Below are positions 39,069-46,360 of a stretch of DNA of 64,000 nucleotides, in pieces; position 1 is the first letter of the stretch; every line of letters starts with the position of its first letter. The DNA is taken from NCBI RefSeq assembly GCF_058153355.1, contig NZ_CM177019.1; one strand, written 5' to 3'. Under the pieces are notes generated by a model, which was not told the origin of the DNA, searched no databases, and saw nothing but the letters and a program-made list of their open reading frames with translations. The translations under genes were made by a program, and so were the position numbers.

Positions 39069-39153
39069 TACTGCTCCTGAACGGTTTACAGGAGTAAGTG
39101 TAGACGTTGGCAAATGATGTTTGTGAAGTTAATCCTGTTGTAGCAGGGCAAGA

Positions 39154-39977
39154 TTACGAAAGCACGCTCCCCGCAAGGACTGACGCCAGGTAGTTTCTGT
39201 CCATGGCTGCCCTTTCCATTCACACGTGAAATCAATAAGTTCATCAGGGACATCGCAAACAATGTGAAGACGGATTTCTTCTCTGCCGTGACTCTTTTCA
39301 CTAATTGCGTAACTGTCATGCTCTGGATTATTTAATTCTTTCAGTGAGAATTTTTCCTCAAAGGCTTTATTTAGCCGCCCCTGGTTTCCTTTTACAGCGA
39401 ATAAATAATCACCTCCCTGTTTTTGTATCTTCTCTGCAATATCTTTCTGGCAACCCATCGCATCAGTTGTGATGATTTTTCCTTTAATATCCAGCATGTT
39501 AAGAAGTTCAGGGATAGCTGTAATTTCATTTGATTTCTCATCCGTCCTGATCTGTCCGATGACCAGACTGTGCATTGTTGAGAACGCACTAATGACATGA
39601 ATCGCTCCCCTGCAGCGACTCTTGTCATAAGAATGCCGGAGCTTTTTTCCATCAATTGCAATGACGTCTTTATCATCTGAAGAATGGCAGTCACGCATCC
39701 AGTTAATAAAGCACTCGTGAAATTTTGCAGGACTGATACAGGATACAACTCTGGCAATGGTATCGTGAACAGGAATACCATTTTCAAAATCACCCTATTG
39801 CTTCAAAAAATCGAGATGTGTTTCCCCAAAATCCTCTATATCTTCTCAACCTTCTGCACCCGAAATAACGGCGCAAATAGTCAACAGTAGAATATCCGAT
39901 AATTTATGTTCCACTTTCCAGGCTTGTCTGTAATCGGGGATAATAGAAATATGTTCCATCAATTTTTTAAGTACCAT
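39154..39977 (-). pseudogene. H-repeat-associated (ISAs1-family) transposase pseudogene
   Basis: N-terminus [43 protein letters not shown] hits an in-frame TGA. Downstream frames carry [20 protein letters not shown]...[18 protein letters not shown] and the terminal [16 protein letters not shown], requiring a frameshift and an internal deletion after ...EWKG. Confidence 0.85.
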
Positions 39978-40370
39978 TTTGTTCTCCTTAATTATGTAAG
40001 GAGTATTTGATCATGTATAAGCAATAAAAAACAGCTTCAGGTAATGAGGAATATCTCAATTTTTAAACATAAAATGCGAATTGTTTAGTACAAAAAAGCA
40101 GCGTTACGTGATCTTTTCCTGCCATGGGTCTTTACCACAGCAGCTGGGGTTGTTTGGGACCGACTTCCGACAGCAGATCCCGGTGAGCCTGCCACCATCT
40201 CTTCACAAGCTTATGCTTATTACATGCAAAACGTCCCGTTTTGCATCTTTGTGCCTACGGCACACGATGATCTTTCCCTGAGGAGTCATACTTTGTTAGG
40301 ATAAAAAACCTTTAAATAGCTTTCCTACCTTCCAATAAAAACCACAGAATCAGCAATGTTTAAATTTCAA

Positions 40371-41192
40371 TCAGTATTGAGTTTCATTTGTGATCTCTAC
40401 ATTCACTCCTGATGGCTTCTCGCTAAATAAATATCTCATACTCTCATTCTCCATAATCACGGATATATTTAACCCTCCATGAATCCATTGATATGTAATA
40501 TTTTTATCATCAATCTTATAACTAAAATTCCCAATTGGTAACTTTTCCTTCAGATAATTATTCTCCTCATAACTAAGTGCTAGTAATTTATCATAGGCAC
40601 CTTTTAAATCAAAACCCTCAAAATAGCAATGTTCTTTTGATGAACCATCAAATTCTTTTCTGGGATTAGCATCATGACACCAAGTCGACCATTTTTCTTT
40701 TTTTTCCTCAGAAGTATGTTTTTTTTCATTGAAAAACAGCACATAATATTTCTCTGGGATTATTATCTGATCATTAATTTTTAAGATATCTCTATATGGC
40801 CCAGGACATTTATGAACAGAATCCATAATGGATATTTCTTCAGGAAAAAGTTTGCCTTCATGTTTAAATAATTTCCTGTACATACCAACTGTTGTTTGTG
40901 ATAAGTAATATGACAAGGGCTTTTTTTTAACTTCAACATAGTCAGTCGAGCATACGAGACTATTTTCCAATGAATAATCATTTATCGTTAGCTTTCGCCC
41001 ATCCATATTTATCACTACCTTACTGTATGTTTCATCAAGGGCACTTATTATAAGCGAATCATGTTTACCAAAAACATCGATATCTGAAACATTATGATAA
41101 ATCCATACGGTATTTTTAGTATTATCATTAGAATATGCGATACCATGAATAAAAAAAATCATTAGAAAGCCCATAAAAAATTTACCGCGCAT
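40371..41192 (-). CDS. Putative periplasmic immunity protein for the adjacent T6SS cell-wall-lytic effector
   Basis: 273-aa ORF with Sec-type signal peptide (MRGKFFMGFLMIFFIHGIAYS), Lys/Asn-rich, AT-rich codon usage, 19 bp downstream of the effector gene. No recognisable homology, so function is inferred from position. Confidence 0.6.
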   Translation of the reverse strand: MRGKFFMGFLMIFFIHGIAYSNDNTKNTVWIYHNVSDIDVFGKHDSLIISALDETYSKVVINMDGRKLTINDYSLENSLVCSTDYVEVKKKPLSYYLSQTTVGMYRKLFKHEGKLFPEEISIMDSVHKCPGPYRDILKINDQIIIPEKYYVLFFNEKKHTSEEKKEKWSTWCHDANPRKEFDGSSKEHCYFEGFDLKGAYDKLLALSYEENNYLKEKLPIGNFSYKIDDKNITYQWIHGGLNISVIMENESMRYLFSEKPSGVNVEITNETQY

Positions 41193-41211
41193 ACAAATTC
41201 CTTAATGTAAA

Positions 41212-43977
41212 TCAATGTGATGAATCATAAACATTATTCAAAAATAGATTTTGTTCTTTTCGGCGTCGTATAACAAGGCCAGCAACTCCGCCATTTGTAA
41301 TATCAAGAAATTCATTGGAGGCACCTATATAATCCTTTTGATTAAGTTTAGAATTCAAATTCGGTGCCTTACTCATGCTCCCCATATTAAACAATAAACT
41401 TATTAACGCATCAAATTCGTACTGATATAAATCCACACTCACTGTTCTTTTAAGCTCACTAACAAAACCAGATAAACGCTCTTCAAATAACTCATCAGCT
41501 TTAGCAATTGTTATTCCATGCTGAAATTCTTCTGGTAAAACTATATCATTGCAACGTTGTGTAGCAATTAAATGTCCATAACCTATAGTACAGTAACCTT
41601 CTGAATCATTATATGCTGTTAGTTGTAAATATTCCCATTCTTTTATAAAACCCTTACCTTTATTTGATACATTCAAATCTGCAATGGCGATCCTTTCAGC
41701 AGTTTGTTCTTCGTTAAAACTATTGATGTACCCCTCCATCAATATATCAATTGGATCATGTAAATCATCCCGTCTATAAAATGGAGGTATTTGTGTATTA
41801 TTCGGCGGAGGCGCTCCATTGTTTCCTGGATAGTATTCAAAATGCAACATATAAACCACTTCTTCCCCAGGGATTATAACTGGAGGCCTCCCTGTATCAG
41901 GTTTAATCATCAACCCTGTTTTGGCAATTATTGCCCCTTGCATAATATGATCATTAATCTTTACTAAAATACTTGATGGATCAACTTCACCATACCGCAC
42001 ATAGAAATGCCGACCATCTCTAGTCGAGTGCTCAATCGTAACTTGCCAAGTACCGTAATAGTATCGAGAAATAGCTCTTACTATTCCGTTGCAAACCGAA
42101 ACAATATCAGACTTCGGTTCCGTATATAGATCACGCGCTCCATGTTTTCTATTACCATTATTACGATTTCGTCCAAATATAGCTTGAGAGGCATTTCGAT
42201 CTGTCAAGGCAGCAGCCCAAAAATAATTTTTCCACTTTCCATTTTTGTCATTATTAGGTTTTACTTTTAAAGGAAAAATAATTTGATTTGATTTTTTCTG
42301 AGATAATGAATCTAAAAACACAACCGGATGAAAATGCCACACAGCATCATCACTATTAAACGGAGATACCCCGCTCATCCACTCCAGATCCAGCTGCCAC
42401 TTCTCACAGTATGCCACTTCCTCTGTATCCAGATCTTTATAAAATCCTTCCCACCGCCCTGTCGAGCGCCCTCCGTACCATTCGCTGTGGTGTTTAACTA
42501 TCAGATGATTCACCACATTTCTCACCAGTGGTTCACGCACGATCAGCGCCTGTCTGATCTCTTCCTCCGTCACTTTTCCATCACCGTCCTGATCCATACC
42601 CGCCATCAGCTCACGATAAAAGGGCGGTACCTGCTCATACAGCCACTCATCTCCCTGTTCTGCGGCACGGCTTATTGAGTCAAACGCTTCCGGCACCCAT
42701 CCTTCGTACGGGCTGTACGTCATGTCACCGCTGCTGTTCTCCTCCAGCGGTTGAAAACCCAGCTTCAGTAAATCATACTGTCCGGCCTCTTCAACATCCT
42801 TTTGTGGCAGCCAGCCGGTTCCGGTGATATTAAACCACCACTGCTGCGATTCATCCGTGACTGGTGTCGTGGCTTCCCGCGGAAGAACGCGCTGAGCACC
42901 CAGCGTGGCTGCGGTTGCGGTAAATACCTCCTGTCCCGGAACGGCCTGCCGGGTGTATAAAATTATCCCTTTTGGTGCCAGAACAGTCCGTTTTTCTCCC
43001 TTAACGCCTGCCGGGTTGGATAAGAACTTTGGCATATTCGGGTCTGTACTCAGAACCTCCAGATGGACGAACCACTCGCGCTCAATCTCACCGCTTCCCT
43101 CGCCAGGATAATCCTCGCATCCCATAAATCCGACCGGTGTTCCGGCACTGACTTTCCACTCTTCCGTTTCGTCGACCGTCTGTACCGAGTCAAAAATGCC
43201 TTTTGCCTTCGCCTTCTGCATCCACTCAGGCATCAGCATCTGTATTTCGCCATCTGACTCCATCAGATCCGGATCCAGGGTCACCCAGTACTGCTCATTC
43301 CCCGGTTTATTGCCTTCCAGCAGGCGAACCAGTCCGAATGTCGTCAGGACCGGCTGGCCGTTATTGGTCACGTAAAAACGTCCGGTCCGGGATGACACAA
43401 ACCGATCTCCCGCATTAAGTGTCCTGTTTCCGCTGATTTTCGGGGGTATCCAGTACGTGGCATGATCTCCGCTTTCCTGCCCCTCGGGAAGGCCGTTCTT
43501 TCCCGGGATGTATCGGTGCAGCAATATGCCACCATGCCCGGTTTTAACTTTATAGCAGGGGGAGCCGGGATAATCGTTCACCGGGGCCAGATGCATATAG
43601 AGACAGTAAAATTCCAGCCAGCTTTCTTTTTTTTGCGGGTCTGGCTGGCACTGCGATTTCACCAGAACAAATGTGCTGCTGTAACGGAGTTGCTGCCCTT
43701 TGTAGGGGCCTTTCAGGTAATCATTATTTATCCGGTACGCCGCAATGGTGCCATCGGCCATAAACTGAAGAGGAACCGGTTCTCCGGTAGCGGCGGTATC
43801 CGGTTTCAGGGCTGATAACGGATTAGACACGTCACTGATATGTATCCCGCCGTGCCACAGCCCGTTTCCACCCAGCAGCCAGGTTCCGTGCGCTTCTTTG
43901 TCAATAAGCCGCATTATCTCATCCAGTGAGCGAAACTCTTTGCCTTCTTTATCCCTGATGGGATGGCTGATTTTCAT
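41212..43977 (-). CDS. VgrG-linked T6SS effector with C-terminal T4-lysozyme-like (GH24) muramidase domain and internal M23-peptidase-like domain
   Basis: 921 aa. Residues ~770-915 align motif-for-motif with T4 lysozyme (KEWEYLQLTAYNDSEGYCTIGYGHL vs ...[24 protein letters not shown]; Glu/Asp/Thr triad positions present). Residues ~605-716 carry HGARD...MLHFEYY, resembling M23 HxxxD...HxH. EF-hand-like loop DQDGDGKVTEEE at residues 462-473. Start lies 9 nt after the vgrG stop with an AGGA ribosome-binding site. Confidence 0.75.
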   Translation of the reverse strand: MKISHPIRDKEGKEFRSLDEIMRLIDKEAHGTWLLGGNGLWHGGIHISDVSNPLSALKPDTAATGEPVPLQFMADGTIAAYRINNDYLKGPYKGQQLRYSSTFVLVKSQCQPDPQKKESWLEFYCLYMHLAPVNDYPGSPCYKVKTGHGGILLHRYIPGKNGLPEGQESGDHATYWIPPKISGNRTLNAGDRFVSSRTGRFYVTNNGQPVLTTFGLVRLLEGNKPGNEQYWVTLDPDLMESDGEIQMLMPEWMQKAKAKGIFDSVQTVDETEEWKVSAGTPVGFMGCEDYPGEGSGEIEREWFVHLEVLSTDPNMPKFLSNPAGVKGEKRTVLAPKGIILYTRQAVPGQEVFTATAATLGAQRVLPREATTPVTDESQQWWFNITGTGWLPQKDVEEAGQYDLLKLGFQPLEENSSGDMTYSPYEGWVPEAFDSISRAAEQGDEWLYEQVPPFYRELMAGMDQDGDGKVTEEEIRQALIVREPLVRNVVNHLIVKHHSEWYGGRSTGRWEGFYKDLDTEEVAYCEKWQLDLEWMSGVSPFNSDDAVWHFHPVVFLDSLSQKKSNQIIFPLKVKPNNDKNGKWKNYFWAAALTDRNASQAIFGRNRNNGNRKHGARDLYTEPKSDIVSVCNGIVRAISRYYYGTWQVTIEHSTRDGRHFYVRYGEVDPSSILVKINDHIMQGAIIAKTGLMIKPDTGRPPVIIPGEEVVYMLHFEYYPGNNGAPPPNNTQIPPFYRRDDLHDPIDILMEGYINSFNEEQTAERIAIADLNVSNKGKGFIKEWEYLQLTAYNDSEGYCTIGYGHLIATQRCNDIVLPEEFQHGITIAKADELFEERLSGFVSELKRTVSVDLYQYEFDALISLLFNMGSMSKAPNLNSKLNQKDYIGASNEFLDITNGGVAGLVIRRRKEQNLFLNNVYDSSH

Positions 43978-43986
43978 GTTCAGTCC

Positions 43987-46185
43987 TTATCGTGAGAATC
44001 TTCCCGGCCGTTGTGGCGGTACCTTATCCTGCTGGGGAGGATCAAAGGCTTCCTGTACACTTTTCCGTGGTGGCTCCGCCCCTTCAGTTCCAGGTCCGCC
44101 ATTGTCATAATCTGCCAGCGCTTTCAAAACCGCCGGTCGTAGCGTCGGCACCGGCGTTCCCGGACTACCGCCGCTATTGAGATTGATTTTCGGCCCGACG
44201 ATGTCCACGCCCCCTGAATGGATGACCACAAACGAACCACCCACCTTTAGGGTGATTTTACCGCCACTCTCCAGTACGATTTCATTCCGGACCTTCATTC
44301 CCAGCGCACCGGTAATCTTCCTCGCCAGGTCGCCCTTCACCTCCAGACTGTGCTTTCCCTCCACCAGGCTGATATGGTTCCCCGTCGTCTTATGCTCCTG
44401 CTTCCCTTCCACCGTCACTTTACGGTCGTTTCTGACATACAGGCCGTCATCGTGACTCACGCTCACCGTCCGGTCATTCGTCACCTTCAGCGTCTGGTCA
44501 TTACGTACCGTTATGCGCCGGTCGTTCGCCACCGTGATACTCTGGTCGTGACCCCCTTCTTTTCTGGTGCCGACCTCAACCGTCTGCCCCTTCACCACCC
44601 TTATCTTCTGGTCGTTACCGATGGTCTCCGTATGGTCATGCTTCACGTCCGTCGTCCGGTCGTTAAGCACCTCCGTGTCCATGTTCTTCTGCGCGTGGAT
44701 ATACACCTGCTCACTGTCCGTCGCATCCTCGAAACGCAGTTCATTAAAGCCGCTTCCTTTATAGGTCTTCGAGCGGATGGTCATCTGCGTCCGCGTGCCC
44801 GGTAAATCCCCCGGTGAACGGTTATCTTCATGGTAGGTCCGCCCCGTCACAATGGGCTGGTCCGGGTCGCCGTTCAGAAAGTCCACTATCACTTCCTGAC
44901 CCACACGCGGTATCGCCAGATTGCCGAACCCCGGTCCCGCCCATGCCTGCGACACCCGTATCCAGCACGAACTCTCCTCCGTCATCCCGTGATAACGGTC
45001 CCAGTGAAACTTCACCCGTACCCGGCCATGCTCGTCGCAGAATATCTCCTCACCCTTCGGCCCGGTCACGATGGCACTCTGCGGGCCGTCCACCTTCGGC
45101 TTCGGCAGCGGCGCGTGACGCCACGTCCTGTCTGCCGGTATCACCTCAAACTGATTGCTCAGTGTCGTCCCTTCACCGTGACTCCCGTGCAGCGCCTGCG
45201 GCTGTTCTCCCCGCAGTGTGCTTCCCACAACCTGCCATTCCCGGTTCAGCGTCTCTGAGGGATGGCCCGTCAGCCGGAACCGCGTTCCCGGCCACAGCCG
45301 CGCCGTGTTACACACCCCGCTCGCCGTCTCCGCCCCGTTCCGCCACCCTTCCGTCTGGTAACGCGCAAAATCCTGGCCATGCTGCTCATCCTTGAAACGC
45401 CCCGGATAATCAAATATCTCGTACTGCGTTCCCTGCCCGTTCAGGCTCTCCCCGTCATGGCTGTAGTACCCCGGCCACCCCGGCGTTTTGAACGTATAAT
45501 CCTGCGTCTCCACCGACGCCACGCTTATCTGCGCACGGTAACGAAACTCACTGATGTACTCCGTCGTTCCCCCGGTCGTGGTATTCGGGTTAAACGCCAG
45601 CGCCCCCATTCCCGTCAGCCCCGCCACGTCATCACACACCGCCAGCTTCTGCTCCGGCCCTTCCTGACCGCAGCGCTCATAAAAGAAGATACCTTCCTCC
45701 GCCCACAGCCGGGTCAGGAATGCCAGGTCGCTCTCCCCGTACTGCACGCAGAACTCCCGCGCCGGGTGCGCCTCATAGAACAGCGGCATCCACGCCGTCA
45801 CCCCGTTCTCTCTCAGAAGCTGTGCTGATATCGTCTGAATGTCCTGCTGCTGGAAGATACGGAAGTTCTGCCGTAACCCTGCCCGCCACAGCGGCGGGCT
45901 GATGCTCAGGGAATAACGCATCTGCCAGTCGTTGTTCTCACCGAGCTGCACCTCCGTCACGATACCGCTGACGTAACGCTGCGGGATATCACCCTGCCAG
46001 ACCGTCAGCACCGCGCTCTTCTCCAGAAAATCCTCCGCCATCAGGTCGGACAGCCCGCTGGCGATATCCACATCCAGGATGAACGACGTGCAGTGGTGCT
46101 GGTACAGACGGAAGCTCACCACCGCCGTCGCCATCTCCACGATACCGTCCACCGACAGCGTGAAACGTAATCCTTCTGAGGACAT
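43987..46185 (-). CDS. vgrG: Type VI secretion system spike protein VgrG
   Basis: N-terminus MSSEGLRFTLSVDGI and gp27/gp5-like VgrG sequence (FRLYQ..., ISPPLWRAGLRQNFRIFQ, EGIFFYE). The ORF track offers an upstream ATG at 46218; 46185 is preferred by comparison with typical VgrG N-termini. Confidence 0.9.
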   Translation of the reverse strand: MSSEGLRFTLSVDGIVEMATAVVSFRLYQHHCTSFILDVDIASGLSDLMAEDFLEKSAVLTVWQGDIPQRYVSGIVTEVQLGENNDWQMRYSLSISPPLWRAGLRQNFRIFQQQDIQTISAQLLRENGVTAWMPLFYEAHPAREFCVQYGESDLAFLTRLWAEEGIFFYERCGQEGPEQKLAVCDDVAGLTGMGALAFNPNTTTGGTTEYISEFRYRAQISVASVETQDYTFKTPGWPGYYSHDGESLNGQGTQYEIFDYPGRFKDEQHGQDFARYQTEGWRNGAETASGVCNTARLWPGTRFRLTGHPSETLNREWQVVGSTLRGEQPQALHGSHGEGTTLSNQFEVIPADRTWRHAPLPKPKVDGPQSAIVTGPKGEEIFCDEHGRVRVKFHWDRYHGMTEESSCWIRVSQAWAGPGFGNLAIPRVGQEVIVDFLNGDPDQPIVTGRTYHEDNRSPGDLPGTRTQMTIRSKTYKGSGFNELRFEDATDSEQVYIHAQKNMDTEVLNDRTTDVKHDHTETIGNDQKIRVVKGQTVEVGTRKEGGHDQSITVANDRRITVRNDQTLKVTNDRTVSVSHDDGLYVRNDRKVTVEGKQEHKTTGNHISLVEGKHSLEVKGDLARKITGALGMKVRNEIVLESGGKITLKVGGSFVVIHSGGVDIVGPKINLNSGGSPGTPVPTLRPAVLKALADYDNGGPGTEGAEPPRKSVQEAFDPPQQDKVPPQRPGRFSR

Positions 46186-46360
46186 ATAAACCCCATAGCT
46201 ACCGCACTCATGGTGCAAACCATACGGGCTTATAAGAAAGGCTTAAGTGAGATATCTGCCAGATAGCAACTATTAGGAAAATATTTATATATATTTCATG
46301 AATATATATTTCGGTTGGTATAACGGTGTCTAAATATTCCTCTGAACATCTTCCTGATAC

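Follow-up and report, generated by a model that had tools for sequence, protein, structure and literature searches.

We analyzed a stretch of 64,000 nucleotides from contig NZ_CM177019.1 of assembly GCF_058153355.1 (the window), which carries a type VI secretion system (T6SS) effector with a predicted calcium-binding site. The effector is encoded at 41212..43977 by an open reading frame (ORF) of 921 amino acids (aa); this feature and the others described below are on the minus strand unless noted. Our main finding, which rests on the sequence and its relatives, is that the protein contains a genuine canonical EF-hand motif: a predicted loop of 12 residues, DQDGDGKVTEEE, at aa 462-473 (42559..42594). 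The loop lies in the helical subdomain of a conserved module that is shared by effectors with very different toxin domains, and its liganding residues are conserved as would be expected for a metal site.

The original prediction had described the loop as an exact fit to the EF-hand pattern, with Gly at position 6, Glu at position 12, and IRQAL directly after it, and both the translation and PROSITE PS00018 confirm this. As in other canonical EF-hands, the loop has potential oxygen ligands at positions 1, 3, 5, and 12, glycine at position 6, and a hydrophobic residue at position 8. The 13-mer DQDGDGKVTEEEI is the sole match to PS00018 in 33,034 amino acids (i.e., all ORFs in the six frames of the window with 100 aa or more), and about 0.13 matches would be expected by chance over all of these ORFs. 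When we shuffled the effector protein 200,000 times, PS00018 matched 0.38% of the shuffles, and the stricter pattern D-x-[DN]-x-[DN]-G-x-[ILV]-x3-E matched 0.07%. Given the low rate of matches to PS00018 in shuffled sequences, and because the motif is conserved at one site across the homologues, it is improbable that the match arose by chance. A motif scan of the effector protein did not find a second D-x-[DN]-x-[DN]-G. There is an ORF on the plus strand (42328-42678) that overlaps the loop, but we rejected it as unsupported, while the minus-strand ORF has 252 homologues.

Comparisons to profiles and structures identify the same site. EF-hand_1 from Pfam (PF00036) scores 23.0 bits over aa 455-478 (E = 4.8e-5), which is slightly below the gathering score of 25.4, and four related models (EF-hand_5, EF-hand_6, EF-hand_7, and EF-hand_8) match this stretch more weakly. 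An EF-hand profile matches 25 of 34 family members at E<=0.01, and several homologues carry precomputed matches to PF00036 or PF13202. When aa 422-560 were compared to the sequences in PDB with phmmer, the only hits were to EF-hand proteins, and only via aa 454-477 (Streptomyces CabD, 3akb, at E = 2e-5; calmodulins at E = 1e-3 to 1e-2). The surrounding residues also fit the hydrophobic pattern of the two helices in the 29-residue EF-hand template: Y454, L457, M458, and M461 precede the loop, and I474, A477, and L478 follow it. Together with a structural model from AlphaFold2 (AF2), these matches delimit a predicted EF-hand (E-helix, loop, and F-helix) at aa 453-481 (42535..42621).

Conservation among homologues, which the original prediction had named as a check, bears the motif out. 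A search with the effector found 252 homologues at E<=1e-5, and among the best 120, which are enterobacterial, 106 match PS00018 at the homologous site. We computed the entropy of each position across 58 N-terminal modules with under 90% mutual identity. Position 1 is Asp in 88% of these, position 3 is Asn or Asp in about 90%, position 5 is Asp in 90%, position 6 is Gly in 95%, position 8 is Val in 83% (and otherwise Ile, Leu, or Met), and position 12 is Glu in 97%. Positions 2, 4, and 10, by contrast, have entropies of about 2 bits, as compared to an average of 0.97 for the module. To judge from these alignments, this pattern of fixed ligands and variable non-ligands is what is expected of a metal site and not of a plain turn. 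The other 14 of the 120 homologues include some in which one residue is replaced (G6 by V or E, or D1 by G or N) and two clades with degenerate loops (MGQDG--KISGEE and LENPQFHGVNE--V) whose flanking helices are intact.

The loop is also found far outside of the enterobacteria. A second search, seeded with the module from Burkholderia, identified a parallel family in Burkholderia and Paraburkholderia that follows the same principle of interchangeable toxin cassettes, and 116 of the 120 members that we examined contain a PS00018 loop. Across 91 of these proteins, which we anchored on their SEW motif, D1, G6, K7, T9, A10, and E12 are invariant. The modules from E. coli and Burkholderia align only at aa 22-111 (35% identity) and aa 452-560 (31% identity), and within the 13-residue EF-hand segment, 9 of 13 residues are identical. 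An 846-aa protein from Aeromonas sp. has DTDKSGELDSKE aligned to the loop. As for more remote relatives, which we found by using tblastn against plasmids, vgrG-linked GH108 effectors of Burkholderia glumae bear DTDHDGKVTALE at the loop and a relative on a small Enterobacter plasmid bears DQNHDGELSGEE, while the loop is lost in several plasmid genes from E. coli and Cronobacter and is degenerate in Rahnella. We also searched 1.84 billion representative sequences (clustered at 50% identity) with a profile, which gave 1028 clusters at E<=1e-3. Among the best 150 representatives, 111 have a [WY]HxHP anchor downstream; of the anchored proteins, 50 have a strict EF loop, a count that rises to 60 when position 8 may also be Tyr or Phe, and in the others the same two helices enclose a loop that is lengthened or degenerate. 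Judging from these comparisons, it is clear that the liganding residues are under purifying selection in the enterobacterial, Burkholderia, and Aeromonas branches. Because the loop is conserved across clades and yet was lost repeatedly, we conclude that the EF-hand is old in this family, that it is selected for in most branches, and that it is dispensable in some.

The plasmid-borne relatives have some other unusual features. The relative on plasmid pRAHAQ01 of Rahnella aceris (locus L008, 1024-4512) has 1162 amino acids and follows vgrG and a small ORF. Its loop is degenerate (STNSDGYYSPDE), and it has a second EF-type loop, which is canonical, in its C-terminal part (DSDQNGNIGNNDL, at aa 938). 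Relatives of the N-terminal module are also carried by plasmids without vgrG, namely pJBIWA005_5 from Enterobacter sp. (L010) and conjugative plasmids of E. coli (L005, L007, and L009), of which L005 and L007 carry genes that lack the loop. Plasmid pJBIWA005_5 is mobilisable and has just 6.2 kb, and it carries only mobilisation and exclusion genes, a fusion of the module to a pesticin-like muramidase, and a lysozyme inhibitor of the LprI family. Its layout resembles that of a bacteriocin plasmid.

The original prediction had placed the loop in a linker region of the effector. Instead of being in a linker, the EF-hand lies within a conserved module: in nearly all BLASTP alignments, the part that is shared among homologues ends at aa 558-561 of the query, which is downstream of the loop. 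The junction at which toxins are swapped, at aa ~560, is about 90 residues beyond the loop. The module as a whole (aa 1-560, 42298..43977) is common to homologues with differing C-termini. Its last part (aa ~420-560, 42298..42720) is an all-helical subdomain that closes the module and carries the EF-hand, and in our alignments this is the module's most conserved part.

An AF2 model of aa 396-560, which was built from alignment A2, has helices at 427-440, 452-461, 471-479, 483-497, 510-514, 518-530, 532-536, and 551-558. At the EF-hand, the model has a helix at 452-461, a loop of 9 residues (462-470), and a helix at 471-479, so the predicted geometry is helix-loop-helix with the exiting helix beginning at position 10 of the loop. 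The confidence is moderate here (the predicted local distance difference test, or pLDDT, is ~68-77). A full-length AF2 model, built from 34 sequences, has a pLDDT of 64 overall and below 50 at the EF-hand, and is unusable for the loop. Only one canonical loop is present in the subdomain, according to both the PS00018 scan and the phmmer comparison to PDB. The AF2 model does contain a candidate for a degenerate EF partner, with a helix at 483-497, a 12-residue loop at 498-509, and a helix at 510-514, but fold searches with it were not significant.

The subdomain also contains two motifs that are more strictly conserved than the loop. K-H-H-S-E-W, at aa 495-500 (42478..42495), is 22 residues past the loop, and H496, S498, E499, and W500 are invariant in alignments A1 and A2. 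An x-SEW motif persists in remote relatives, including some that lack the EF loop. The other motif, W-H-F-H-P, is at the end of the module (aa 547-551, 42325..42339), and W547, H548, H550, and P551 are invariant. The conserved trio of His residues and the Glu suggest a second metal site or some other functional site. The most invariant residues of the module are KHHSEW, WHFHP, W509, and E532-W-M, and these are retained even where the EF loop is missing. We considered whether the invariant Cys525 could be a papain-like nucleophile acting with H548 or H550, and rejected this: the Cys is substituted in several homologues and the spacing between the Cys and the His is too short. We also dropped, as a claim, a correspondence between E499 of KHHSEW and E539 of TseP (see below).

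We identified the protein as a T6SS effector that degrades the cell wall from the adjacent vgrG, from its GH24 and M23-like domains, and from the signal-peptide-like start of the neighboring ORF; on this evidence it is a VgrG-linked effector with a probable periplasmic immunity partner. The vgrG (tssI) spike gene is just upstream (43987..46218; TIGR03361 VI_Rhs_Vgr, E = 5e-176) and encodes the Pfam domains Phage_GPD, Gp5_trimer_C, and Phage_base_V. Only 9 nucleotides separate vgrG from the effector gene, and 19 nucleotides separate the effector gene from the next ORF (40371..41192), which encodes 273 amino acids. This last protein has no match in Pfam or NCBIfam. Its N-terminus resembles a signal peptide (MRGKFFMGFLMIFFIHGIA/YS), as judged by eye, and its position and size parallel those of SARI_02624, an immunity protein with 276 amino acids and a Sec signal peptide. 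It is probably the periplasmic immunity partner.

The variable toxin module of the effector (aa 561-921, 41215..42297) has low GC content (GC) and comprises an M23-like and a GH24 domain. Pfam places the domain that resembles M23 peptidases at aa 611-688 (41914-42147), where the match to Peptidase_M23 (PF01551) is 27.4 bits, which is just below the gathering score (GA) of 28.7. The HxxxD motif is present as HGARD (aa 612-616), HxH reads M-L-H (within MLHFE, aa 710-714), and Foldseek finds lysostaphin and LytM. As for the C-terminal domain (aa 779-908, 41254-41643), we can say from its sequence that it is a phage-type lysozyme of family GH24. It matches Phage_lysozyme (PF00959) at E = 3.9e-25 with 89 bits (GA 22.3), its triad (E782, D791, and T797) is intact with the spacing of T4 lysozyme, it matches the endolysins 8app and 9kbq in PDB (E = 2.5e-16), and Foldseek also finds GH24 lysozymes.

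The N-terminal module has the conserved histidines of a putative zinc site of the M23/LytM-like type. These are in the first metal-ligand motif, W-H42-G-G-I-H46 (43840..43857), and in two partner motifs, YMH129LA (43585-43599) and VH305LEV (43054-43068). H42, H46, H129, H305, and E307 are each at least 90% conserved in our alignment, and the motifs are also found in relatives from Burkholderia, Aeromonas, and Rahnella. Both of the M23-like domains in this protein lack the first His of HxH (the sequence is F-V-H at VHLEV and M-L-H at MLHFE, 41836-41850), while the other metal ligands are kept. Because a comparison of the module's profile to PDB sequences found only a weak match to polcalcin (E = 0.73), there is no solved structure for this module. 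Some relatives have an extra ~150-170 residues N-terminal of the module (i.e., P0015, P0023, P0033, and P0076, as well as representatives P0318 and P0370-P0373), which may be an additional domain or may reflect how the start codon was annotated.

This is a polymorphic effector, in which the N-terminal module is fused, here, to the M23-like and GH24 domains. Only about 10 homologues match it over the full length, at 61-71% identity, while in over 100 the similarity is confined to the first ~560 residues. Behind the module, the alternative C-termini include GH19, N-acetylmuramidase (PF11860), pesticin-like (PF16754), GH108, CHAP, and SLT domains, among others. The GC is 59.5% in vgrG, 52.8% in the part of the gene that encodes aa 1-560, and 35.1% in the part for aa 561-921; the immunity ORF has a GC of 30.9%. 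The two halves of the protein also differ in their best database matches: the N-terminal module is 98.7% identical to that of a GH19 variant from E. coli (P0009), and the C-terminal half is at most 71% identical to any match. Because the shared region stops at aa ~560, the GC falls there, and the identities of the halves differ, we conclude from the sequence that the toxin-immunity cassette was exchanged at this point. The cassette (40371-42297) looks like a recent recombination from a low-GC source, with the break in GC at 42250-42400, or aa ~541-560.

It also appears that the EF-hand subdomain is itself mobile. In E. coli MFDS1022581 (NZ_CP169399.1; locus L001, 7352-8409), there is an orphan cassette behind an ISAs1 fragment, and its start corresponds to aa 419 of the effector (MTYSPYEGW...DQDGDGKVTEEE...). 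This orphan has an identical EF-hand, followed by an N-acetylmuramidase, and it contains a frameshift. Because it starts at this position, we conclude that the helical subdomain travels with displaced toxin cassettes, and the subdomain plausibly serves as the homology arm for recombination and the swapping of toxins.

The vgrG-effector-immunity island (39129-46218) lies between ybfA/kdp and ybgA/phrB, and the flanking genes (kdpFABC, ybfA, ybgA, phrB, and dtpD) indicate an E. coli-type chromosome. In other strains of E. coli, the same site contains rhsC elements or vgrG with S-type pyocin cargo. The full effector is absent from all 5,426 of the complete E. coli genomes that we checked, and just 3 of these contain the N-terminal module, which is fused to GH19 at the mtlA-yibF locus. 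The island is bounded by a remnant of an ISAs1 (H-repeat) transposase (39129..39698; a partial match to NF033564 with E = 8e-56). The ISAs1 gene (39129-39990, on the minus strand) is truncated and is broken by an in-frame stop, and ISAs1 fragments flank related islands in other E. coli.

Based on its sequence, the effector belongs to the TseP-type family of T6SS peptidoglycan hydrolases, with an N-terminal module that resembles, and is probably homologous to, that of TseP. TseP from Aeromonas dhakensis is a VgrG-dependent chimeric effector whose N-terminal domain (1-603) is both a zinc-dependent amidase and a structural component of the T6SS and whose C-terminal domain is a lysozyme (PMC11893102). 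Like the effector in the window, TseP (UniProt K1JFN7, "EF-hand domain-containing protein") is linked to VgrG, has His-based zinc motifs and a predicted EF-hand, has an apparently fused C-terminal lysozyme with different GC, and has its immunity gene downstream. TseP differs in having a single lysozyme domain, with GH19 fold neighbours, instead of M23 and GH24. The amidase activity has been assigned to H19, H23, H109, and H339 (PMC11893102), and the His motifs of our N-terminal module presumably correspond to this zinc site. None of our representatives fits TseP's H19, H23, H109, H339, H359, E539, and E663. The Aeromonas branch is represented by the 846-aa protein mentioned above, whose BLASTP alignment to the module is colinear and includes the EF loop (E = 6e-27 and 3e-27, with 27-38% identity). 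Also, the published Foldseek list for the N-terminal domain of TseP holds like-named proteins from E. coli, Klebsiella, Enterobacter, and S. arizonae (PMC11893102).

A characterized effector with the same architecture is SARI_02625, from SPI-21 of Salmonella enterica subsp. arizonae, which has an EF-hand, an M23-like domain, and a GH24 domain in the same order (PMC12992299). The E-D-T triad of its GH24 domain is spaced by 9 and 6 residues, as in the window's effector. SARI_02625 and SARI_02624 have been shown to be an effector-immunity pair that acts in the periplasm (PMC12992299). Members from Salmonella of the same family of 90% clusters are about 62% identical to the window's protein. On the other hand, SARI_02625 is annotated with 1032 amino acids and is ~110 residues longer at the N-terminus, and it is within a full T6SS cluster, while the gene in the window is in an orphan vgrG island at the rhsC site of E. 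coli.

The original prediction considered EF-hands to be rare in bacterial toxins, which is overstated for this class: besides TseP and SARI_02625, such sites have been published for PSPTO_5413 and Tse3, and also for other enzymes that lyse the cell wall. PSPTO_5413 from Pseudomonas syringae pv. tomato DC3000, which we liken to the window's effector by its description only, has an EF-hand and a lysostaphin-like (M23) domain, and its gene is near vgrG2a in the HSI-II T6SS cluster. It has previously been suggested to target the cell wall in a manner modulated by calcium, and it was not toxic when expressed in E. coli (PMC7283901). In the crystal structure of Tse3, a T6SS muramidase of Pseudomonas aeruginosa, a helix-loop-helix of 12 residues contains the Ca3 site and is likened by the authors to the canonical EF-hand, and there are calcium sites in the substrate groove (PMC3792639). 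Tse3 has an unrelated fold (SLT/goose-lysozyme-like), and its Ca3 site is within the catalytic domain, close to the groove, and not in a separate helical subdomain. The lytic transglycosylases of family 3 (E. coli Slt35/MltB and P. aeruginosa SltB1-3) are periplasmic and have a single, unpaired calcium site of the EF-hand type that is held to be important for stability or for binding a partner, not for catalysis (PMC12547810). With 15-17 residues, their loops are non-canonical, and they form insertions within the catalytic domain; there is no homology to the module in the window. Finally, in the CHAP domain of the staphylococcal phage lysin LysGH15, an EF-hand-like calcium site beside the active site is a demonstrated on/off switch (PMC4022735). 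LysGH15 is a cell-wall hydrolase, like the effector in the window, but its fold and context are unrelated.

What might the EF-hand do? The likeliest reading, to which we give about an even chance, is that the loop is a real site for a single calcium ion. This site would be mostly vacant in the cytoplasm, would be occupied in the periplasm, and would stabilise the helical subdomain. We infer all three parts of this proposal: that calcium is bound, that occupancy depends on the compartment, and that binding is stabilising. D462, D464, and D466 would contact the ion with their side chains, K468 with its backbone carbonyl, and T470 via a water, and E473 would be a bidentate ligand. In E. coli, free calcium is sub-micromolar in the cytoplasm, and periplasmic calcium tracks the external concentration. 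So the site would be mostly empty in the cytoplasm of the producing cell and would fill once the VgrG spike has delivered the effector to the periplasm of a rival. The effector probably acts in the periplasm because it has GH24 and M23-like domains, because its neighbor has a signal-peptide-like start, and because of the precedent of SARI_02625/02624. The filled site would then rigidify the helical subdomain, which lies between the delivery and putative amidase module and the toxin domain after aa 560. This would be a stabilising structural site as in E. coli Slt35, helpful but not needed for catalysis; SltB and the Ca3 site of Tse3 are further precedents for structural EF-hand sites in enzymes that lyse the cell wall. 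We favor a non-essential role because neither the assembly of the T6SS nor toxicity was critically affected by mutations in the EF-hand of TseP, because zinc and not calcium restored TseP's amidase activity after treatment with ethylenediaminetetraacetic acid (PMC11893102), and because the loop has been lost repeatedly while its helices were kept.

Alternatively, as the original prediction had suggested, the EF-hand could be a calcium-gated switch: while empty, it would keep the effector inactive or partly folded, and calcium in the periplasm would turn on one or more of the hydrolases, as in the CHAP domain of LysGH15. The conservation of the loop is specific to its ligands, the loop is 22 residues before the invariant KHHSEW, where conservation in the module is highest, and besides LysGH15 there is a precedent in the groove of Tse3. 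The same hypothesis has been stated for PSPTO_5413. Nevertheless, we consider a switch to be unlikely. The results for TseP's amidase and its EF-hand mutants do not support an obligatory switch, the free swapping of unrelated toxin domains argues against a specific allosteric link, and natural variants without the loop persist with intact toxin domains.

Another idea, which we find rather improbable, is that calcium controls contact with a partner, such as the tail of VgrG, the immunity protein, or a protein in the target's envelope. The N-terminal domain of TseP binds VgrG2 and the immunity protein TsiP and is required for T6SS assembly (PMC11893102), and the binding of SltB1 to PBP2, to which its EF-hand is suggested to contribute, is reported to depend on calcium (PMC12547810). 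Also, no other region is as well conserved as the subdomain, which accompanies orphan toxin cassettes. However, EF-hand mutants of TseP still support the assembly of the T6SS. We would put at about the same low level the idea that the EF-hand is a relic, with the helix-loop-helix being kept only for folding while the loop has lost metal binding in vivo, or retains it to no effect, and is conserved because of structural constraints on the turn. Repeated loss or remodelling of the loop between the same two helices would be expected of a relic, as would the lack of a phenotype in TseP. But it is hard to see why a relic would be conserved specifically at ligand positions 1, 3, 5, and 12 and at Gly6, across clades that are ~30% identical elsewhere. 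As for a chance match or a dockerin-like fragment, both of which the original prediction had allowed for, the motif is short, but we give these almost no credence: beyond the shuffles and the fixed position of the loop in hundreds of homologues, there is a single loop that leads into a helix and has Glu12, where dockerins usually have Asp, with no duplicated segment of ~22 residues and no dockerin family in Pfam at E<=1.

There is a more ambitious proposal, in which the EF-hand, KHHSEW, and WHFHP would form one calcium-controlled element that gates release from VgrG or the activity of whichever toxin has been recombined after aa 560. We doubt this strongly. If it were true, then this element would be a generic sensor of arrival in the periplasm across hundreds of polymorphic T6SS toxins that target the cell wall.

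That the motif is present is no discovery. Many proteins of this family carry the name "EF-hand domain-containing protein" or "calcium-binding protein" at NCBI, at least three papers about related effectors discuss the motif, and the calcium hypothesis is already in print. The only mutational test of the EF-hand, in TseP, was negative under laboratory conditions (PMC11893102). The comparative data sharpen the question of function: the ligands are under purifying selection, even though loss of the loop has occurred more than once. Because the loop is conserved in most branches and lost in some, there are natural pairs of relatives with and without it, and these are the material for comparing stability and competition at defined calcium concentrations. 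Effectors of this type are being engineered as lytic antimicrobials, so it would be of practical value as well to know whether calcium stabilises them.

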